Numbered from the stretch's first letter, positions 11,136 to 38,701 are shown. The stretch: 64,000 nucleotides of DNA from an uncultured Candidatus Saccharibacteria bacterium (GCA_964592365.1 CAZQDL010000002.1:86139-150138); one strand, 5' to 3'. Numbers and translations: made by a program. The notes: a model not told the origin generated them from the sequence alone.

Positions 11136-14100
11136 TTATTGCAATGGCTTAACCCCTTGCATAAGTAAACTTTTCTTTCCATCTTTGTCAGACATTTTTC
11201 CTTGAATTGCTATGATGGCATCTTCAACAAGTAGTTCTGCGTGTTCTTTGTAGAGTTTTGGAAAAACTACTACTTCTGCTGATCCTGTAAAATCAGAAAG
11301 TGTGATGAATGCCATTTTGTCACCCTTCTTGGTGTTAATTACCTTAACAGTTTCAATGATTCCACCAACAACTACCGTCTGCTCATTTCTAATTTCACCT
11401 GTTGATATCATTCCTAAATGATAGCTACTTTTTTTAAACCTATCTCGCATATGATCAAGTGGATGACCAGATACATAGACACCTAGAATTTCTTTCTCCA
11501 TAGCTAAGCAATCTTCCTTTGAAAGCGGTTCTGTTTCTTTGAGACTTATGTGAGATTGCCCAATGTTTCCAAATAGGGAGGCCTGATCAGAGTGCATACT
11601 CTTTACCTCTTTGTTGTACTGAAGAAGTGCTTCAAGATTTCCAAGTAATGATCCTCGTTCTCCAAATTGATCAAGAGCTCCTGCCATGATGAGTGCTTCA
11701 AGTGATTTCTTGTTGAAATTCTTGTGACGAACTCTGTTTAAGAGATCTTCAAGTGAGTTAAATTTTCCTGCTCGTTTTCGTTCTTGGATAATTGCATCTG
11801 CAATTCCTTCACCAAAATTCTTGATGGTGTAGAAACCGAATCTGATTGCATTCTTCTCATCATTTTGAATTATGGTAAATGAACCAAAGCATTCATTAAT
11901 ATCAGGAGGAAGTACTTCAATGTTCATTGAGGCACATTCATGAATAATTATTGCAATCTTATCAGTATCTCCAGACTCAGCTGATAGCATTGCTGTCATA
12001 TATTCAACGGGGTAGTTTGCCTTCATGTACGCTGTTTCATAGCTGATACGTCCATAGCTTGCCGCATGTGACTTGTTGAATCCATACGCAGCAAAGGTTT
12101 CTATTTGATCCCATAGTTCTTCTACAGCCTGTGGTTTCATTCCGTAATCTAAACACCCTTGCATAAGTTTTTCTTTTTGCTCTGCCATCAGCTCAGGAAT
12201 CTTTTTTCCAATAGCTTTTCGTAACTTATCAGCATCACCCCAAGTGAAACCAGCAAGGTCAACAGAGATTTGCATTACGTCTTCTTGATATACCAAAATT
12301 CCATATGTCGGAGCAAGAATTTCCTTCATTCGAGGATCAAGATATCTAACCAAAGATGGATTTCTCTTTCTTTGAATATATTCAGGTATGAATTCCATAG
12401 GTCCTGGTCGGTACAGGGCAATCATCGCATTGATTTCATAAATATTACTTGGTTTCAAGTCAATAATATACTTAGTCATACCGGCACTACCCATCTGAAA
12501 GACTCCCATGGTTGAACCTGCTCCAAGAAGATCATATGTTTTCTTGTCATTAAGACTGATGGTATTCAAATCGATATCAATATTCTGTATTTGCTTTACT
12601 AAACGAACTGCATCAGCAAGTATTGAGAGGTTTCTAATTCCAAGAAGGTCAAATTTTGGCATATTCACAACACCATCACGATCACCAGTATACATATCGT
12701 ATTGAGTGATAAGTTTTCCTCCTTTCGGATCAAACTGAACAGGAGAAAAATCATCAACGCGTGTTGGTGAAATAACAACACCAGCAGCATGAACTGAAAC
12801 GTGACGAGCACATCCTTCAATTTTTTGTGCAAGATCAATAATTTTTTTGACATCAGCTTCTGACTTATACAAAGCACGAAGATCTTCCTCTTCTTCGAGT
12901 GCTCTTGCAATAGTCATCGGAAAACCCTGTGACCCCATTGGGATAAGTTTTGCGATCTTGTCACCAAGTTCATACGGATAGTCTAAGGCTCGAGCAACAT
13001 CACGAACAGATCCTCGTGCCGCCATAGTTCCAAAGGTACCAATTTGTGCCACAGATTTTGAACCATATTTTTCACGTATGTAATCAATCACTTTGTCCCT
13101 ATGAATATCAGAAATATCAAGATCAATATCAGGGATACCTTTTCTTCCAGGGTTCATAAATCGTTCAAAGGGAAGATCCATTTCAAGAGGATTTACCTTG
13201 GTAATGAAATTAAGATATGACACAAGAGAACCTGCTGCAGAACCTCTTGTATTTGTATAGATACCCATTTTCAAAGCAGCTTCTACAAGATCAGCCATAA
13301 TTAAAAAGTATGAAGAATATCCTTTCGAAGAGATAATACCAAGTTCATATTCTATTCGTTCAACAACTTCCTTTGTCTCTTCCATATTACGATCAGGAAT
13401 ACGACGATATGTTTGTTCTCTTAGAGCTCTGTCATAATCATATCCTTCTGGAATAGGGAAGTCAGGGAAATACCAACTATCAATATCAATCTCAACATTA
13501 CACCTATCTGCTATTCTTCGTGTTTCTTCAATTGCTTCAGGATAGTCTTTGAAGCGCTCAGCAATATCTTCAGGAGATGCAAAATGAAATTCTCCTCGCA
13601 TAAATCCACTAGACACTCTGTTTCCTGTGGTTGAAACACCAAGCAGGGTATCAAATGCTTCACGATCATCTGGATGTATATAATGACTATTATGTGTTGC
13701 TACTAAAGGAGCTCCTGTTTCTTTTGATATCCTTGCAAGATCTGCATTGATCTCTTTCAGACCATCAATATGATCATTGAACATGATTTCAATGTAATAG
13801 TTTTCTTTTCCAAAAATCTCTTGATATTGCAATACTAATTCCTTTGCATGATCATAGTTTTTGGTAAGGATTGCTTGTCCTACTTCACCATATATTGAAC
13901 CAGAAAGACAGATAAGACCTTCTTTGTATTCCCTTAGAAGTTCTTTGTCCATTCTTGGTCGATAATAGAATCCTTTAATAAAGGATTGAGTAACTAACTT
14001 CATAAGGTTCTTGTACCCCTGGTTATCCTTTGCCAAAAGAGTGAAAGGATATCGTTTAGTATCAATACCATGATCCTTCTGTTCCATGCTTCTGAAAGCC

Positions 14101-29950: not shown

Positions 29951-29959
29951 TCATTGTAT

Positions 29960-30430
29960 ATGAAGAATAAAGGATTCACCTTAATTGAATTACTTGTAGT
30001 TGTTGCCATTATCGGAATACTCGCAACGGTGGTATTAGCATCACTTGGAAGTGCAAGAACAAGAGCTCGAGATGCAGCAATCAAATCATCACTATCAAGT
30101 ATGAGAACTCAAGCTGAGTTACAGTATCTTGTAGCAAATAACTATAATGATATTTGTGATTTAGAATCACAAACTGGAAAAATATTTAGAGATGCTTTTT
30201 CAAAAGCAGGAGTTGGTTCTTCAAGTAATGCTTGTAGAGATAGTAACGGGACCTTTAGTGGAAACACTGGAGGAACACTTATCTCAAGCGCACCGGTGTT
30301 TCCAGATGCATGGAAAGTTCGAATTAAGCTAAATGCAGGAGATTGGATCTGTTTAGATAGTACAGGTTCATTGGTTGAAGTTACGACAGCCCCATCATAC
30401 GATACGGGAAATTCTGACTGTACTACATAA
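29960..30430 (+). CDS. type IV pilin-like protein, paralog 2
   Basis: [39 protein letters not shown]; closest to paralog 1 (…[25 protein letters not shown]…). ORF track start 29954 is TTG; ATG at 29960. Confidence 0.85.
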   Translation: MKNKGFTLIELLVVVAIIGILATVVLASLGSARTRARDAAIKSSLSSMRTQAELQYLVANNYNDICDLESQTGKIFRDAFSKAGVGSSSNACRDSNGTFSGNTGGTLISSAPVFPDAWKVRIKLNAGDWICLDSTGSLVEVTTAPSYDTGNSDCTT

Positions 30431-30458
30431 AGAAAACGAGCATACGCTCGTTTTCTTT
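30431..30458. terminator. bidirectional terminator (gaaaacgagc atac gctcgttttc)
   Basis: Read directly. Confidence 0.7.
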
Positions 30459-30828
30459 ATTTCCCAAAACAACAATTTTTACAAGACTTAGAATCACAAA
30501 CTCCTTCACATGAACGTAAGTAAATTACGAGAGAAAGAATTGCAACAATAAGTGCTAAGATGTTAAATCCAACAAGAATGAGTGCCCCAATCATATTTGC
30601 AAGAAGTAGTGCTGATGCAATCTTTTCTGTTTTTTTACAAAACAGCATGGTTACAAGGAGCACTTGAGCAATACCTAAAACCATTCTACTTTCATCAGGC
30701 ATACCAAACATATTAAGTTGATTAAAAAGTTCTACTGACATGTCTGCCCCTGATATTTTTCCAAAAGCTGACATAAGTACAATAACTGCTACCACAACAT
30801 GTGGTAAATAACATAGGTATTTTTTCAT
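30457..30828 (-). CDS. DoxX-like small multi-pass membrane protein with Cys-rich C-terminus (CEGVCDSKSCKNCC)
   Basis: Four hydrophobic helices typical of DoxX/SURF4-like proteins; likely ATG at 30828 (MKKYLCYL). Confidence 0.4.
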   Translation of the reverse strand: MKKYLCYLPHVVVAVIVLMSAFGKISGADMSVELFNQLNMFGMPDESRMVLGIAQVLLVTMLFCKKTEKIASALLLANMIGALILVGFNILALIVAILSLVIYLRSCEGVCDSKSCKNCCFGK

Positions 30829-30942
30829 GATATTAAATATAAATTTGATTAATATAAATATCATATCATTGAATAATTATTTTCAATTATTGCTCTTTGT
30901 ATTTTATATTGTATTGTTTGATAAAACATTAAAAAAATATAT

Positions 30943-31890
30943 ATGGTACAGATAATAGTTATACTCGTTATCATTTGGTTTCTTCAAATGTTAAGAGATC
31001 TAAGAAAGATGTGGATACGATTAGATTCTCACGCTCGCATTGAAAAAAAATTTGAAATTCTTGTTAATCAGAAATTACTGACCCGTAAGAGAAATTCAAT
31101 TTTCAATTTCTATGGTGAGATTGGATCAAAAAATCCACAAAAGGTAGTACTTCTTCAATCTGGAGTTCATGGTGGACTTGAACTTTTTGCTATTGAAGTG
31201 TTGCTCGATAAGATTGCTAAATTAGATTTAGAAATGTTAGAAGAAAAAAGAATTAAGGTGATTGTTATCCCAATTGTTAATCAATATGGGTTTGATAATT
31301 CAAAACGAACTAATGAGAATGGGGTAGATTTGGCTCGTAATAGTGGATATATAACCACACACCTTAATAAAATTCCTTTTGTGGTTGGCTGGTCCTTCTA
31401 CAATATCTTCATGATTATTCCTGTTTTGTTAACAGGGAAGACTTGGTACAACAAAGGTTTCAATCTACAAAGAGAAACTGATACCTTAATGAGATTGTAT
31501 AGAAAGAATCTAAGGAAGTATAAAGATAATTTCTTTTGCTTTGATTTCCATACAGGAAATACTTCAGGAGAAAGTAGATTGTTCTTTCAAGAATTGTACA
31601 AGCAACCACATGTTTCATTCATCAATACCTTATGCTCAGAAACATCTATGCATATAGAAATGATTGATTATGGAACTGATGGTGGTTTCTTTGAAAAAGT
31701 TGCGCTTGATACGGGTATAAATTTTAATGCCTTTACTGTGGAATTAGCAGTAATTGCAAAATATACTCATAAAAAGTATGTCATGAGATACTTTTTCCAT
31801 ACAGTTTTTGAACCTACTGAAAAAGAGTATGAACAACAGAAAAAAGAAGCTGATAAAGAGATAGATAATATCTTTTCATCAGTTATATAA
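30943..31890 (+). CDS. M14-like zinc carboxypeptidase / AstE-AspA (succinylglutamate desuccinylase) superfamily protein
   Basis: VHGGLE (HxxE zinc site), ...GVDLARN (DLNR-like arginine motif), FDFHTG (second His) in the order expected for this fold. Confidence 0.5.
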   Translation: MVQIIVILVIIWFLQMLRDLRKMWIRLDSHARIEKKFEILVNQKLLTRKRNSIFNFYGEIGSKNPQKVVLLQSGVHGGLELFAIEVLLDKIAKLDLEMLEEKRIKVIVIPIVNQYGFDNSKRTNENGVDLARNSGYITTHLNKIPFVVGWSFYNIFMIIPVLLTGKTWYNKGFNLQRETDTLMRLYRKNLRKYKDNFFCFDFHTGNTSGESRLFFQELYKQPHVSFINTLCSETSMHIEMIDYGTDGGFFEKVALDTGINFNAFTVELAVIAKYTHKKYVMRYFFHTVFEPTEKEYEQQKKEADKEIDNIFSSVI

Positions 31891-31918
31891 AATACAGAAA
31901 TATTTCTGTATTTTTTGT
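31891..31918 (+). terminator. terminator (atacagaaa tat ttctgtat + T-run)
   Basis: Read directly. Confidence 0.65.
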
Positions 31919-31945
31919 TTACAGCATAGTAATTTAAGCTATGAT
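31918..31945 (+). promoter_or_regulatory. promoter for tmRNA (TTTACA-N16-TATGAT)
   Basis: -10 ends ~9 nt before the mature GGGG 5' end. Confidence 0.5.
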
Positions 31946-31954
31946 ACAAGGTAT

Positions 31955-32330
31955 GGGGATGATCGGCTTCGAAAGAAAGCATCATAACCCTGTTGCATAC
32001 CTGGTTGGTAGTGAACCAGTCAAAAGACTACGGCTCATAGATGCAGAAAATTCTATTGCTTCTCCTTACTTTAAGGGAAGCCTTGCATACGCATAACAAA
32101 CCTTGCAGCAAGTGCACCTCAGTACATTGTTCAGTAGTATTGCCGGTGTATCATAATCATTGAACTAGGGAAGAGAAATTGTTTCGATCTTTTCTTGAAT
32201 TAAAGAAACTCGAGGGTAGTACGCTTATGCTTATTTTTTAGTACTATTCTTTAACAACATAAGATAAGCTAAGTATGTAGATATAGGCTTGTGACCTTAC
32301 TTCACGCGGGTTCGATTCCCGCCATCTCCA
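31955..32330 (+). ncRNA. ssrA: tmRNA (transfer-messenger RNA)
   Basis: 5' end GGGGAUGAUCGGCUUCGAAAG (acceptor 5' strand + D-analogue UUCGA). 3' end GCGGG-UUCGAUU-CCCGC-CAUCUCC-A (T-arm + acceptor pairing to 5' GGGGAUG with one G-U); CCA not encoded. Internal candidate tag frame gca gaa aat tct att gct tct cct tac ttt aag gga agc ctt gca tac gca TAA (…SPYFKGSLAYA*). ~376 nt. Confidence 0.8.
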
Positions 32331-32336
32331 CATAGT

Positions 32337-32358
32337 CGGAACCACTTTCGAGTGGTTT
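32337..32358 (+). terminator. terminator after tmRNA (aaccact ttcg agtggtt + T-run)
   Basis: Read directly. Confidence 0.65.
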
Positions 32359-32490
32359 TTCTATTACGTTGAAAATACTGACGATTTCACTGATTTGAGC
32401 GTTTTTCAACTAAAATCATTTACCTCTAAAGTATTGACTTTAATGTATATTTATAGTATTGTTTTTTAAAACAATTTAAAAACTATAAAT

Positions 32491-32949
32491 ATGATAAAAC
32501 AAGGTCTAAAAGTTTATCCTGCTGAACCCTACGAGTACGGCAGAATGGGAACCTTTGGAAAAGCAAGTAATATGCTAATTAAACAGTATTGTTTTCCAGA
32601 CACTTATGATGAAAAAGATCAAATCCTTAGAGCAGATCATGACAGATGCAAACAATGGGATTATGAACACGCAACTGGATGTATTAAAAAGCATACTGGT
32701 TGGGGTGAAATGGGTATAGGTGGTTGGGTTGAAAAATCAAATCACGAGAAAGTTTTTGCCTTTTTGAAGGATATTCTTAAAGCAGACGAAAAAGTAGTCT
32801 GGACAGGGTATAGAGTAACAGGGTCAGTAAACCGTTCAAATGGTTATCCAGTATTTAGTTTAGAGCTTTTCTCTAAACATCCAGAATCCGATACGAAAGT
32901 ATATTCAAGAGTAACAGCACCAAATGTTTTACCAGGACCAAGAAATTAA
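32491..32949 (+). CDS. hypothetical protein
   Basis: 152 aa, no recognisable motif; first gene of a block of uncharacterised genes between ssrA and smpB. Confidence 0.4.
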   Translation: MIKQGLKVYPAEPYEYGRMGTFGKASNMLIKQYCFPDTYDEKDQILRADHDRCKQWDYEHATGCIKKHTGWGEMGIGGWVEKSNHEKVFAFLKDILKADEKVVWTGYRVTGSVNRSNGYPVFSLELFSKHPESDTKVYSRVTAPNVLPGPRN

Positions 32950-32961
32950 AGAAATCAATAA

Positions 32962-33000
32962 GCCAGATAATATATTAGATATGTTATCTGGTCTTTTTAT
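32962..33000 (+). terminator. terminator (ccagataa...ttatctgg + T-run)
   Basis: 8-bp stem with 13-nt loop then ttttt. Confidence 0.55.
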
Positions 33001-33269
33001 ATACAATTGACTTTATATAATTTTGTTGTATTATAAAAAACAAATAAGGTCGGAATATTTCTGATAAATAATAACAAAAAAATAAAGGAACCTGATGAAA
33101 AAAAATGGAATCATAGGCGTTTTCATTTGCTCTAAGAGAAAATGATGAACCAAACCCATGTAATTTTAGACTAGTTGAAGAGGTTATTCGGATCGCGGAA
33201 GAAGAAAAAGAAAATGGGAATACCGTAGAAATCATCGCACAGTGGGAAATAACCAAGGCTCTTAAAACA

Positions 33270-33578
33270 ATGAACTATCCTGTTTCACTGAGTGTCGAGA
33301 GATTACCAAATGAATATTCGGATAGTGAAGATGTAATGATTGCTGCAAAAGTATTACTTGAGAAACAAGGAATAGGGGAAGTAATACCTGTTGCTCAATC
33401 TTTTCTACATATTATAAAATGTAGAAAGTTGATAAAAAACTCTGGTTTTATTATTTCAAACAAACCTATAAAGAAGATTGGTTTTGATTCCAAATCTGAT
33501 CAGCAATGGACACGAAGTCCTTTAAGACTGGTAGTTTATGCAATCAAACAAGCTCTTCTTGGAAGTAAAGGAAATTAA
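33270..33578 (+). CDS. hypothetical protein
   Basis: 102 aa; preceded by a TTGACT..TATTAT promoter and a ~230-nt leader containing a 16-codon mini-ORF (MKKNGIIGVFICSKRK). Confidence 0.35.
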   Translation: MNYPVSLSVERLPNEYSDSEDVMIAAKVLLEKQGIGEVIPVAQSFLHIIKCRKLIKNSGFIISNKPIKKIGFDSKSDQQWTRSPLRLVVYAIKQALLGSKGN

Positions 33579-33587
33579 TTTCCTTAC

Positions 33588-33621
33588 AAAGACTCTAACG
33601 TTATTGTGTAGAGTCTTTTTA
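33588..33621 (+). terminator. terminator (aagactcta...tagagtctt + T-run)
   Basis: Read directly. Confidence 0.6.
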
Positions 33622-33701
33622 TATATAAAGAGAACATATCTCTCTATCTTTTGTTTCTAAAAATTCATGGTATAGTTTCCTAAACTTAAAACTACATTTG
33701 T

Positions 33702-34205
33702 ATGGGAATAGTAGGAACTTTTAGAATTGAAATACCTAAAAATAATTTGCGCAATATGCAAGGAGGCACTTGTGGATACATATATTGTGAAAATTTTCGC
33801 TTAGGTAAAAATCTTTTATGTATACCTCTTTGTACTGAAGTATTCTATTCATTGGAAGACATGTATGAATTAAATTATGGAACCTACGTATCTGTGTATA
33901 AATTTGATGATGGTTTCAGTTCAGATTCTTTTGAAATTGATTTAACTGAAGATCCAAATTTTGATATCGAAGATTGGGAATTACTTCCAGAAAGTCTGCT
34001 TTTGCAGTATGCAAAGAGCAAAGATTGGATTGTATTTAAGAACCCTCCAATATTCTTAGATGAAATTGATAGTTTAGATGAATTAGATAAAGAAAGTCTT
34101 CAAGAACATGAAAATGCTAATATTGATGAAAACATCAAAGAAAAGTATGCCATGTCAGTTAGCCTTCAGAATTTAAATCAAGCTGAACTTCAAAAACTGC
34201 CTTAG
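33702..34205 (+). CDS. hypothetical protein; a UVR-like motif (EEENYNYAAKIRDALEHQKKKG) is encoded in the +1 frame just past the stop
   Basis: ORF ends ...NQAELQKLP*. Shifting +1 at the A5 run (caaaaac) gives LEEENYNYAAKIRDALEHQKKKG*, a good match to the second half of the UVR domain (..eeeF.eAA.lRDei..L). Confidence 0.4.
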   Translation: MGIVGTFRIEIPKNNLRNMQGGTCGYIYCENFRLGKNLLCIPLCTEVFYSLEDMYELNYGTYVSVYKFDDGFSSDSFEIDLTEDPNFDIEDWELLPESLLLQYAKSKDWIVFKNPPIFLDEIDSLDELDKESLQEHENANIDENIKEKYAMSVSLQNLNQAELQKLP

Positions 34206-34261
34206 AAGAAGAAAACTATAATTACGCGGCAAAAATTAGAGATGCTTTAGAACACCAAAAG

Positions 34262-34296
34262 AAAAAAGGTTGATATATATCAACCTTTTTATTTTT
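34262..34296 (+). terminator. terminator (aggttgatat atatcaacct + T-run)
   Basis: Read directly. Confidence 0.65.
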
Positions 34297-34581
34297 AGTA
34301 ATGTTTCCTTACAATCATCGTATTCACTTCCTTTTTCATGCAACTATATTCAAACCAAGGATTACCTTGATCATCTTCGGGTTCATGTTTTTCACCGCAG
34401 TTTTTGCAGGTTTGCATTTGTTTTTTCTTTCTTTTGAAAGGAGTAAGTACTTTTAATAGATTCATAATGTTGTATATGTTTTAGTTTCATAAAATATGCT
34501 ACCTTCGTATATTGAATTGTCAACATATCTTGTAAAATACAAAAAATGTTGTATAAATATAGAAACTAAAAACTAAATAAC

Positions 34582-35244
34582 ATGAAAGAACTAATAAAAA
34601 CAGTGGATTGGAACCTCAGTAAAACCAACAAAAAAAAGTTTATTGATGAGATCAGAGATGCTTTCCACAACATTGGGTGTGTTGCAATTATCAATCATCC
34701 GGTGAACATGGATAACATGAATGAAAACCAAGAATTTTTAAATGGTTTTTTGAATAATATTCGGGGACACTACACGGAAATCTCGATGCCTGGTAACCAA
34801 ATGCATTCGTTGTTCTTACAATTCCGTAGTATGTACATAGCTTTGTTAAAGCTATTAGCACAAAGCTTAGATTCAAAACCTACACATTTTGTTGAAAAAA
34901 TGAGTGATTATGATTTAACATACAGGTTTAGTGAACAGCCTATATCATGTGCTTCTTTGTTAACAATATTGTCTCCGAAATCTGAATTTCAGATATGGAA
35001 TAGAGAAAAATATGTTGATGTACAGTTAGAACCAAATGCAGTGCTTGTTTGTGTTGGTGAGATTCTTGAATATATAACTTCAGGATTCTATCAATCAGCA
35101 ATATATATAATTGATGATCAATTGGTTCAACAGTTTTCAGGGTTACTCAATCATGGAGCAAGCATCGAAACGTGTCCTAACTACCGCTGGTTAAATCAAA
35201 AATCAGTTGTATACAAAACAGTTGGCGATTTTTTAAAAAAGTGA
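34582..35244 (+). CDS. 2OG-Fe(II)-oxygenase-like fold protein with apparently degenerate iron-binding triad
   Basis: N-terminus FHNIGCVAIINHPVN resembles DIOX_N; C-terminal NAVLVCVGEILEYITSGFYQSAIYII parallels ..vvNiGD.le..TNG.ykS.lHRV, but the HxD and distal His positions are replaced (CAS / IYII). Confidence 0.3.
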   Translation: MKELIKTVDWNLSKTNKKKFIDEIRDAFHNIGCVAIINHPVNMDNMNENQEFLNGFLNNIRGHYTEISMPGNQMHSLFLQFRSMYIALLKLLAQSLDSKPTHFVEKMSDYDLTYRFSEQPISCASLLTILSPKSEFQIWNREKYVDVQLEPNAVLVCVGEILEYITSGFYQSAIYIIDDQLVQQFSGLLNHGASIETCPNYRWLNQKSVVYKTVGDFLKK

Positions 35245-35248
35245 ATAT

Positions 35249-35278
35249 TAAAAACAGTACTTCTTAGTACTGTTTTTC
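35249..35278 (+). terminator. terminator (aacagtact tct tagtactgtt + T-run)
   Basis: Read directly. Confidence 0.65.
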
Positions 35279-35305
35279 ATTTGCAAAATGTAATATAATC
35301 TAAGT

Positions 35306-35647
35306 ATGGAGGAAATAATTAAGGCAGATATATTTTTCTTCATTACTAGTATTAGCGTCATTATTTCAACCATACTTCTTTCAATATTTTCATACTATGG
35401 AATTAAAATTTTGAAAAAGTTTTCACAACTTGTTGACACCGTAGAAGAGGAAGTTGGTGAACTAGTTGAAGACTTCCAAGGAGTACGCAAGGATGCAACC
35501 GAAGAAGTTCATGAAATAATTAGCAGTATTGGAAATGGAAGAAAACATATTGAACAGCATATTGTTCAAACCAGTTGGCAGGAGATATTCGGAGCATTAT
35601 TTATCTCAGCTGCAAAGATTAAAAGATTAACATCAAAAAAGAAATAA
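35306..35647 (+). CDS. small membrane-anchored coiled-coil protein (DUF948-like)
   Basis: N-terminal TM helix then charged helical region; TGTAATATAAT 6 nt upstream of ATG. Confidence 0.4.
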   Translation: MEEIIKADIFFFITSISVIISTILLSIFSYYGIKILKKFSQLVDTVEEEVGELVEDFQGVRKDATEEVHEIISSIGNGRKHIEQHIVQTSWQEIFGALFISAAKIKRLTSKKK

Positions 35648-35648
35648 C

Positions 35649-36056
35649 ATGGAAAATAAAAAAGTATCACCAGCATTAGTAGCAGGAATTATCGCAGCAG
35701 GAGCAGTAGGGTATTTATTATTTGGACCACAGGGAAAAAAGAATCGTAAACAATTACAAGACTGGATGTATGATGCAAAAACTGACATTGTAAAACAAGC
35801 AAAGAAAGTAAAAGCAGCAACGAAAGAGGAATTTGGTTCAGTAATTGATGAGGTAATGAAGAAATATACTGAACTTAAGAAAGTAAGTAAAAAAGAAGTT
35901 CAAGATTTAAAGTCTGAACTTATGGGAAATTGGGATCAGCTTTCTTCACTTCTATCTCATGGAGAATACAAGGAAGTTAAAAAAGTTATCACCGCTAAAC
36001 CAAAAGCTGAAAAGAAAGTTGTAAAAAAGGCAGCGAAAGCAAAGAAGAATAAATAA
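35649..36056 (+). CDS. YtxH-like membrane protein (general-stress family), Lys-rich tail
   Basis: VAGIIAAGAVGYLLFGPQGKKNRKQL matches the YtxH domain (small-residue helix + LFAP.sG...R). Confidence 0.5.
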   Translation: MENKKVSPALVAGIIAAGAVGYLLFGPQGKKNRKQLQDWMYDAKTDIVKQAKKVKAATKEEFGSVIDEVMKKYTELKKVSKKEVQDLKSELMGNWDQLSSLLSHGEYKEVKKVITAKPKAEKKVVKKAAKAKKNK

Positions 36057-36057
36057 A

Positions 36058-36090
36058 AAAATAACAACCCGAAAGGGTTGTTATTTTTCT
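36058..36090. terminator. bidirectional terminator (aacaaccc gaaa gggttgtt + T-run); contains smpB stop codon
   Basis: Read directly. Confidence 0.7.
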
Positions 36091-36527
36091 CTTAACTCTC
36101 GATCAATATCCATATTAATTGACCGTTTTTTCAAGTCTTCTCGCTTATCATATTGATGCTTTCCTTTTGCAATGGCAATTTCTACTTTGATAAATCGTTT
36201 CGTTGCGTAAATACGAACAGGAACTACAGTATGTCCTTTTTGTTTGATTGCCTTACGTATATGTTCTAATTCCCTTGTTGAAAGAAGGAGTGTTCTTTTT
36301 TGATATGGATCATACGTTTCATACATTAGCTGAGTTCCTTGGTATGGTGGAATGTATGCACTCGTAAGATATGCTCCATGATCATCAACCTTTATATATG
36401 CCTCTTTCAGTGATCCATTTTTTGACCTTAATGATTTCACCTCAGCTCCGGTAAGTTTAATTCCTGCTTCATATGATTCAAGAAGGTGATAGTTTAAACC
36501 TACTGTTTTATTTACCACTAAATTCAT
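36081..36527 (-). CDS. smpB: SsrA-binding protein SmpB
   Basis: ...AGIKLTGAEVKSLRSKNGSLKEAYI...VVPVRIYATKRFIKVEIAIAKGKHQYDKREDLKKRS aligns along the whole length with SmpB. Confidence 0.92.
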   Translation of the reverse strand: MNLVVNKTVGLNYHLLESYEAGIKLTGAEVKSLRSKNGSLKEAYIKVDDHGAYLTSAYIPPYQGTQLMYETYDPYQKRTLLLSTRELEHIRKAIKQKGHTVVPVRIYATKRFIKVEIAIAKGKHQYDKREDLKKRSINMDIDRELREK

Positions 36528-38624: not shown

Positions 38625-38627
38625 TTG

Positions 38628-38701
38628 TACGCCCAGAGGGATTCGAACCCCCAACTTCCGAGGAATAAGCTCGGCACTCTAGCCAATTGAGTTATAGGCG
38701 C
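38628..38701 (-). tRNA. tRNA, anticodon apparently UAU (Ile/AUA) with unusual U37 and two G-U pairs in the acceptor stem
   Basis: Minus-strand read gcgccua-u-a-acuc-aauuggcua-gagu-g-ccgag-cuUAUuc-cucgg-aaguu-ggggg-UUCGAAU-cccuc-ugggcgu-a (73 nt; CCA not encoded). Perfect anticodon stem; 7-nt loop c-u-U-A-U-u-c. Confidence 0.55.

Follow-up and report, generated by a model that had tools for sequence, protein, structure and literature searches.

The two trans-translation genes, ssrA, which encodes transfer-messenger RNA (tmRNA), and smpB, commonly form a tandem in bacteria. In a 64,000-nt stretch of DNA (hereafter, the window) from an uncultured Candidatus Saccharibacteria bacterium (GCA_964592365.1, CAZQDL010000002.1:86139-150138), the same two genes share the same neighborhood but are convergent and lie 3.75 kb apart, enclosing six plus-strand open reading frames (ORFs), g1 to g6. 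An earlier reading, made from the DNA alone (the sequence-only reading), had described this block as an accessory, island-like cluster. How did the tmRNA gene and smpB come to enclose it? Comparison with relatives favors an answer that we consider probable, if well short of certain: the stretch between ssrA and smpB is a variable region of derived, mosaic makeup that has been rearranged locally, rather than an integrated mobile element.

ARAGORN places the tmRNA gene at 31955-32331 on the plus strand, with the tag AENSIASPYFKGSLAYA, and the Rfam model RF00023 matches 31955-32333 (+) with 103 bits against a threshold of 47. Both describe a one-piece tmRNA of the standard type, and the tag reading frame is present. 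A 51-amino-acid (aa) ORF in public gene calls (31941-32096, +) is the tmRNA read through this frame, ending in ...AENSIASPYFKGSLAYA, and is an annotation artefact. The smpB gene occupies 36081-36527 on the minus strand (Pfam SmpB, PF01668, E value 2e-44). These two placements and all six intervening ORFs agree with the sequence-only reading. Over 26-42 kb, the window is matched at 99.99-100% identity by four assemblies that differ in sample and pipeline (with MEGAHIT-style, SPAdes-style and JGI contig names), so the odd features of the locus belong to the DNA and not to one assembly. The features are, in order:

31918..31945 (+), promoter-like site TTTACA-16-TATGAT, 10 nt 5' of the tmRNA start (10/12 in a consensus scan; a consensus match only)
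32333..32363 (+), hairpin and T-run after the tmRNA (RNAfold dG -10.5)
32424..32977 (+), g1 cassette: promoter-like TTGACT, the ORF 32491-32949 and the first terminator arm; intact and strongly conserved
32491-32949 (+), g1 ORF, 152 aa
32962..32992 (+), g1 terminator hairpin
33270-33578 (+), g2 ORF as annotated
33588..33618 (+), g2 terminator hairpin (RNAfold dG -12.6)
33702-34205 (+), g3 ORF; the element extends to 34273 with an out-of-frame UVR motif
34263..34290, bidirectional terminator hairpin of g3 and a small minus-strand ORF
34295-34465 (-), 56-aa ORF bearing a CxxC motif; public assemblies call it as a gene, but its reality is uncertain
34582-35244 (+), g4 ORF, 220 aa
35250..35277 (+), g4 terminator hairpin
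35306-35647 (+), g5 ORF
35649-36056 (+), g6 ORF
36055..36090, bidirectional terminator common to g6 and smpB (dG -17.8)

The sequence-only reading had given every gene its own terminator. A hairpin with a T-run does follow the tmRNA gene, g1, g2, g3, g4 and g6 (dG -10.5 to -17.8 kcal/mol), while g5 abuts g6 and shares its terminator. The locus comprises seven transcription units, whose genes fall into three states: intact (g1 and g5–g6), degenerate but kept (g4) and freshly broken (g2 and g3). The promoter scan also finds a promoter-like site for the minus-strand 56-aa ORF (34523-34496); this ORF has no homologue in any fetched locus.

Is the block an island inserted at the tmRNA gene? The Escherichia coli element CP4-57 is integrated at ssrA, and the integrases of islands at tmRNA genes are usually tyrosine recombinases. 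In the Islander definition (PMC4383910), islands at tRNA and tmRNA genes have an adjoining integrase and a fragment of the target gene displaced to the far end, and their usual entry side is the 3' side of the gene (PMC4383910 and PMC3146451). The cargo here, at 32424-36056, does lie on the 3' side of the tmRNA gene. The likeness to such islands, including the Dehalococcoides ssrA islands (PMC3146451), extends to the variable cargo 3' of a single-copy tmRNA gene, to content that varies among relatives, and to some cargo (g1) that has seemingly been exchanged horizontally. Unlike in those islands, neither an integrase nor a displaced tmRNA 3' fragment nor a compositional deviation is found, some of the cargo is vertically inherited and keeps its synteny with smpB, and the tmRNA gene appears to be inverted together with the cargo.

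No integrase was called, or annotated by Pfam among all called genes, between 26081 and 41970, and searches of Pfam, NCBIfam and PHROGs with the block proteins gave no recombinase match. Allowing up to three mismatches, the final 24 nt of the tmRNA occur nowhere else in the 64 kb, leaving no remnant of an attR attachment site, and blastn-short with the last 94 nt returned only chance matches of 10-14 nt (E of at least 1). The sequence-only reading had likewise seen no integrase and no repeat of the tmRNA 3' end by eye, and these searches bear it out. The shift in GC content or codon usage that it proposed to look for, a sign that would support an island without defining one, did not appear. 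Block genes have a GC content of 0.31-0.37 (window mean 0.352±0.030) and a third-position GC content (GC3) of 0.19-0.31 (0.233±0.031); their GC, GC3 and codon bias fall inside the spread of the 59 ORFs of the window, with only the GC3 of g4 (0.308) standing out at about +2.4 standard deviations. PADLOC recognized no credible defence system, PHROGs phage families gave nothing below E 1e-3 (marginal matches of unknown function only), and scans of viral contigs with g2, g3 and g6 gave no matches. In the classical sense the label 'island-like' fails: an integrase, an attachment repeat, a composition shift, a defence system and a significant phage match are all missing.

A variant of the island idea would have a tyrosine-integrase element enter the ssrA 3' end and later lose its integrase and attR. 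The position of the cargo on the usual entry side (PMC4383910 and PMC3146451), the hypervariable tmRNA 3' flank in relatives, the self-contained genes with their own terminators, the presence of the g1 family in phage-like contigs and the decay of several genes would all suit such an eroded island. We nonetheless regard it as unlikely. To the missing integrase, the missing attachment repeat (even at three mismatches) and the undeviating composition and codon usage are added three results from relatives: none of 10 sampled genes 3' of tmRNA genes encodes an integrase; g4–g6 are syntenic with smpB and not with the tmRNA gene, with g5 and g6 diverging at the rate of core genes; and the ancestral layout has the tmRNA gene in the opposite orientation.

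The alternative that we prefer, a locally rearranged variable region, draws on synteny. A genome-contig search with SmpB found distant genomes only (up to 46% identity), and we fetched 87 smpB loci from metagenomic relatives. In about 45 of the 87, minus-strand ftsH is followed by smpB and the tmRNA gene, both on the plus strand, the latter directly 3' of smpB with gaps of about 20-700 bp; the tandem is intact there. SmpB identity separates a clade A (the window, L085, L086, L087, L091 and L178) from a clade B (L088, L089, L100, L101, L103 and L107). Of clade B, L088 and L101 have the order ftsH (-), smpB (+), tmRNA (+), DoxX-like membrane gene (+), secA (-). Drawn with smpB on the plus strand, the window and L178, of clade A, have ftsH (-), smpB (+), cargo (-), tmRNA (-), DoxX-like gene (+), secA (-), so that only the tmRNA gene and the cargo are flipped. 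The tmRNA gene is inverted relative to the ancestral smpB–tmRNA tandem, an arrangement for which insertion alone does not account. The DoxX-like gene and the content of the interval in relatives are:

Window, 30457-30864, DoxX-like membrane gene
L178, interval of 1.27 kb with g1, an orphan of 115 aa and perhaps one more small ORF (seen in the sequence but without a gene call)
L085 and L086, g6-g5-g4 beside smpB
L107 and L108, g4 only
L087, interval content is the DoxX-like gene

From these orders we infer the following course. The ancestral layout would have been recG, ftsH, smpB and then directly the tmRNA gene, on the same strand as smpB. Genes would have built up 3' of the tmRNA gene, on the flank that varies in all relatives. 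In the sub-lineage to which the window belongs, the tmRNA gene and its 3' cargo would then have been inverted between fixed anchors, smpB on one side and the DoxX-like gene with secA on the other, leaving the tmRNA gene and smpB convergent and the cargo enclosed between them. Later turnover of the content would have proceeded by recombination and decay.

The variability of the tmRNA 3' flank is group-wide: among the 25 relatives whose sequence reaches far enough, the two ORFs that come first on the 3' side of the tmRNA gene belong to 32 families. The cargo of the interval varies gene by gene among relatives and not as a unit, as far as can be read where the contigs of the closest relatives end early. 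Comparison of the ssrA–smpB interval across relatives, which the sequence-only reading had proposed, shows that it is lineage-specific and variable in content. In relatives down to about 50% SmpB identity, g4–g6, together or as g4 alone, lie beside smpB. The block is accessory only loosely: variable, and partly exchanged. For an ancestral core, the same reading had expected six universally present genes of uniform composition; the composition is uniform, and the presence of the genes is not universal.

The pattern of presence and absence also bears on the idea that the six genes are an ancestral core set coupled to trans-translation and held between ssrA and smpB for co-regulation. The enclosure of the block by both trans-translation genes, the adjacency of g4–g6 to smpB in several relatives and the occurrence of UVR motifs in partners of the Clp system might be cited for it. 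Yet in most relatives smpB and the tmRNA gene are adjacent with nothing between them, L178 lacks g2–g6, the genes converge with smpB and their transcription is terminated separately, three of the six carry damage, and homologues of g1 elsewhere adjoin NifS and NifU genes and not the tmRNA gene. We judge this idea, largely refuted by the pattern, to be highly improbable; nothing supports a functional tie between the cargo and trans-translation.

The genes of the interval differ in their histories, and the pair next to smpB represents the vertically inherited part. From their sequences, g5 and g6 each encode one N-terminal hydrophobic membrane helix followed by a helical tail. This is the architecture of DUF948 (PF06103) and YtxH-like (PF12732) proteins, the best Pfam matches of g5 and g6, as the sequence-only reading had supposed, but the scores are below the curated cut-offs: 16.9 bits against 37.2 for g5 (E 7e-3) and 29.9 against 37.5 for g6 (8e-7). 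The homologues in L086 likewise fall below the cut-offs, making the resemblance weak but consistent. The two proteins are 81% and 96% identical to their L085 counterparts and 50% and 70% identical to those of L086. Compared with L085, the ratio of nonsynonymous to synonymous divergence (dN/dS) is 0.14 for g5 and 0.05 for g6; both genes are under purifying selection. Their synonymous divergence (dS) of 0.80-0.86 is near that of smpB and ftsH (dS of about 1.1), and because this is close to the core-gene rate, we take this part of the block to be vertically inherited.

The adjacent g4 has a different history. The sequence-only reading had recognized in it a 2-oxoglutarate (2OG)-oxygenase-like fold with degenerate metal ligands, and this proved correct. 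Its matches to Pfam DIOX_N (1.4e-5; 26.1 bits against a cut-off of 27.3) and 2OG-FeII_Oxy (1.2e-3; 19.5 against 23) are both sub-threshold. The homologue at the same position in L086 (SmpB 63% identical) has 301 aa and passes both cut-offs; tblastn aligns it with g4 at 27% identity over 291 columns (E 3e-24). Aligned to the structure 3oox of the Protein Data Bank (PDB), the L086 protein displays the ligands HTD, IHRV and RFS, corresponding to the HxD motif, the distal histidine and the RxS motif. In g4, internal deletions remove the HxD segment, the distal histidine is replaced by tyrosine and the arginine of RxS is missing. Compared with the 2OG-Fe(II) oxygenases (PF14226 and PF03171; nearest solved structure 3oox), g4 is thus a clear homologue of a bona fide member, in the same place beside g5–g6 and smpB, but is internally deleted, lacks the HxD...H triad and RxS, and stays below the Pfam thresholds. 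The 216-aa copy in L085 shares the deletions, the tyrosine and the loss of the arginine. Neutral simulations at the divergence of these two copies left an ORF of 220 codons open in no more than 0.02% of runs, which argues that g4 has been maintained. To judge from its lost ligands, g4 is probably a pseudoenzyme-like, non-catalytic protein.

Between the window and L085, 50% of the nucleotides of g4 differ, and 62% of those at third positions, as opposed to a third-position divergence of 0.31-0.39 for g5, g6 and smpB. In a sliding comparison, identity falls from 80-92% to 38-60% at the g4/g5 boundary, near 35245-35290, where the g4 terminator hairpin lies. The extra synonymous divergence suggests that g4 may have been replaced by a divergent allele, as opposed to having only drifted faster.

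The first gene of the block, g1, deviates in the opposite direction. A 554-bp segment (32424-32977), which covers the promoter, the ORF and half of the terminator of g1, is 93.9% identical to L178 DNA. Elsewhere the two sequences are far apart: the adjacent tmRNA gene is 82.7% identical, secA 74% and SmpB 63% (as protein). In terms of synonymous divergence, g1 has a dS of 0.27, as opposed to 3.3 for secA and saturation for smpB; the DoxX-like gene, too, is at 3.3 or saturated. The dN/dS of 0.04 shows that g1 is under purifying selection. The similarity to L178 stops within the loop of the g1 terminator, and L178 lacks the 92-nt spacer that holds the tmRNA terminator. Taken together, these differences point to a recent exchange, in which a self-contained g1 cassette would have moved by recombinational transfer. 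With g1 too similar to a distant relative and g4 too divergent from a close one, these genes have histories at odds with those of their neighbors.

Homologues of g1 form 14 clusters, one of which carries the NCBI name of a Patescibacteria group bacterium. In other Patescibacteria, they adjoin genes for a cysteine desulfurase (Aminotran_5), NifU and Rrf2 (L093 6339-8712, L096 5613-8480 and L097 234-2319). This neighborhood hints that g1 might be tied to iron–sulfur cluster assembly rather than to tmRNA. Further homologues, with 43-48% identity, are encoded on four large IMG/VR contigs (89-498 kb, GC 0.51-0.62):

L179, 3163-3621, g1 homologue
L180, 8001-8414, g1 homologue
L181, 8001-8414, g1 homologue
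L182, 8001-8420, g1 homologue

Their neighbors include a CCA/poly(A) polymerase-like gene, an NAD-dependent DNA ligase, a helicase and many orphan ORFs, and by this content the four contigs look like jumbo phages. A confident structural model of the g1 protein has no solved structural relative. A bolder interpretation of g1 starts from these results, namely the 94% DNA identity amid saturated flanks, the relatives in jumbo-phage-like contigs and the confident model lacking a solved relative. It holds that the tmRNA 3' flank in this Patescibacteria-like clade could be an integrase-independent cassette-exchange site, at which promoter–ORF–terminator units are swapped by recombination, with g1 as a live example and the breaks in the g3 family as more than decay. 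We put this forward tentatively, as a possible but doubtful extension of the mosaic reading.

Between g1 and g5–g6 lie the two broken genes. The sequence-only reading had seen a 230-nt leader with a 16-codon mini-ORF in front of g2. Three-frame translation confirms the mini-ORF (33095-33145), which opens with an ATG at 33095 preceded by AAGGA, and shows the supposed leader to be the 5' portion of g2. The homologue P0122, intact at 163 aa, aligns through its residues 9-156 with 33117-33572 in a single frame (52% identity, E 7e-51). As this in-frame alignment reaches upstream of 33270, the 'leader' is coding sequence and not regulatory. The homologous frame is open over 33117-33578, directly after an in-frame TAG (33114-33116), and has no start codon before 33270. 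The product of the mini-ORF, MKKNGIIGV..., resembles the N terminus of P0122, MSGTIGLV..., one base out of register, and the break is identical in the four independent assemblies. On this alignment, g2 is best modelled as a gene of about 161 codons with an insertion or deletion near codon 7-9, of which the annotated ORF covers only the 3' two-thirds. The gene would now be either dead or cut to a 102-aa C-terminal fragment. An assignment of g2 to DUF218/YdcF was also tried and rejected, as it found no support in sequence searches of Pfam, NCBIfam, PHROGs or the PDB.

The 3' end of g3 tells a similar story. The out-of-frame UVR motif noted in the sequence-only reading is present, and we reread it as the lost tail of the protein, not as a regulatory feature. 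The ORF ends with the stop at 34203-34205, and the motif, ALEEENYNYAAKIRDALEHQKKKG, runs on in the -1 frame (34199-34270) to a stop at 34271-34273. A full HMMER scan of 1.84 billion representative proteins recovered no more than 14 relatives of g3, proteins of 160-220 aa that share an N-terminal domain followed by an acidic linker. In most of them the C terminus is an in-frame UVR-like motif (...EDYE.AA.IRDEI...). According to the family alignment, one base appears to be missing near 34197-34199 in g3, and such a one-base deletion would put the UVR motif out of frame. The family profile gives weak but consistent matches to the UVR motifs of ClpE, UvrB, McsA and ClpC. Like the known UVR proteins (the UvrB C terminus, McsA and the middle domain of ClpC/ClpE), the g3 family therefore ends in a short helical-hairpin motif, as far as these weak profile matches go. 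It differs in its N-terminal domain, which has no solved structural relative, and, in the window, in the motif being out of frame. A four-sequence alignment of the family gave no match in metagenomes.

In L089, whose SmpB is 55% identical, a g3 homologue lies directly 3' of the tmRNA gene. Two -1 breaks split this copy (12191-12752) into three reading frames; neither coincides with the break in the window, and the flanking genes on the same contig are intact. When repaired, it carries the UVR motif in frame.

Could both breaks be bypassed during translation? Programmed recoding, +1 at g2 and -1 at g3, would make both proteins at full length. The out-of-frame parts are stop-free and conserved (51 codons in g2 and 25 in g3, including AAKIRD), the g3 break lies beside five A's at which tRNA-Lys could slip, the L089 homologue is frame-broken as well, and the breaks are found unchanged in every assembly and also in minor variants of the strain. 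The details of the breaks speak a different language. They sit at different places in the window and in L089; of the 13 other g3 family members, most have a UVR-like motif in frame within a single ORF, as P0122 is a single ORF for g2; the g3 break has no canonical X XXY YYZ heptamer and no stimulatory structure near it, only a strong hairpin about 65 nt downstream; and the g2 break, at codon 7-9, has no known +1 shift motif. Recoding is therefore very unlikely in our view, and the broken genes are presumably not rescued in this way. Sequencing or assembly errors, to which the short homopolymer AAAAA beside the g3 break might point, deserve almost no credence: at both sites the four assemblies, which come from different samples and pipelines, agree exactly, variant strains give the same truncated ORF lengths, and the g2 break is not in a homopolymer. 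An alternative genetic code, with TGA as a sense codon, was considered as well and ruled out, since the blocking stops include TAG and TAA.

Several points weigh against the picture of inversion followed by exchange and decay. The inversion is deduced from gene order and orientation alone; inverted or direct repeats were looked for at the proposed breakpoints and none were found, so that it has left no scars there. The contigs of the closest relatives, L085, L086 and L087, end before any tmRNA gene, short of the place where g1–g3 would lie. A single metagenomic contig, L178, is the sole basis of the g1 anomaly. The excess divergence of g4 could also stem from relaxed or positive selection instead of allele replacement. 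Finally, g3 is broken in two independent lineages, the window and L089, a pattern that simple recent decay would not quite predict and that keeps some space for recoding.

With these points included, we still see in the locus the ordinary genome plasticity of a small-genome uncultured bacterium, with lineage-restricted small genes of which three of six (g2, g3 and g4) are damaged. The understanding of trans-translation or of islands is unchanged by it. What the locus does illustrate is that a gene pair seemingly split by an island can arise by inversion and gene turnover, and that a frame-broken gene may lie behind what looks like a 'leader with a mini-ORF' or an 'out-of-frame motif'; the gene models concerned are corrected here. 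It also offers a compact snapshot of stages in the life of genes: intact, catalytically dead but kept, and freshly broken. The families of g1, g2 and g3 are small and have no whole-protein Pfam family, the UVR motif being the only recognizable piece of g3; g1 and g3, which lack a solved structural relative, are possible targets for structural and functional work.

Other observations concern the surroundings of the block. Between secA and the tmRNA gene, the window has a type IV pilin-like gene (29954-30430) and a gene with a DUF2817/AstE-AspA-like zinc carboxypeptidase fold (30943-31890). Both are missing from that stretch in L178, which indicates gene turnover on the 5' side of the tmRNA gene too. 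Among the variable cargo of relatives, an HsdM gene (type I restriction-modification methylase) lies directly 3' of the tmRNA gene in L113 (8589-10580). In L100 (8331-10065) and L102 (11118-12852), both of clade B, no ORF reaches 70 aa in the roughly 1.7 kb that directly follow the tmRNA gene on its 3' side, a stretch that may be decayed sequence or encode a non-coding RNA. The GC content of the window is low, about 35%, pilin-like genes are present, and some of the related contigs come from groundwater samples. Together with the patescibacterial name of one g1 homologue, these features suggest that the host is probably of Patescibacteria (CPR) type.

A UAU anticodon in tRNA-Ile is an uncommon bacterial route to the decoding of AUA; most bacteria use a CAU tRNA with a lysidine modification made by TilS, whose gene frequently neighbors ftsH. 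In the window, a tRNA-Ile gene with the anticodon UAU adjoins ftsH (38627-38701, -), and it does so in all near relatives checked:

L086, 2453-2527, tRNA-Ile (UAU)
L087, 7715-7789, tRNA-Ile (UAU)
L088, 3514-3586, tRNA-Ile (UAU)
L089, 7636-7710, tRNA-Ile (UAU)
L091, 2902-2976, tRNA-Ile (UAU)

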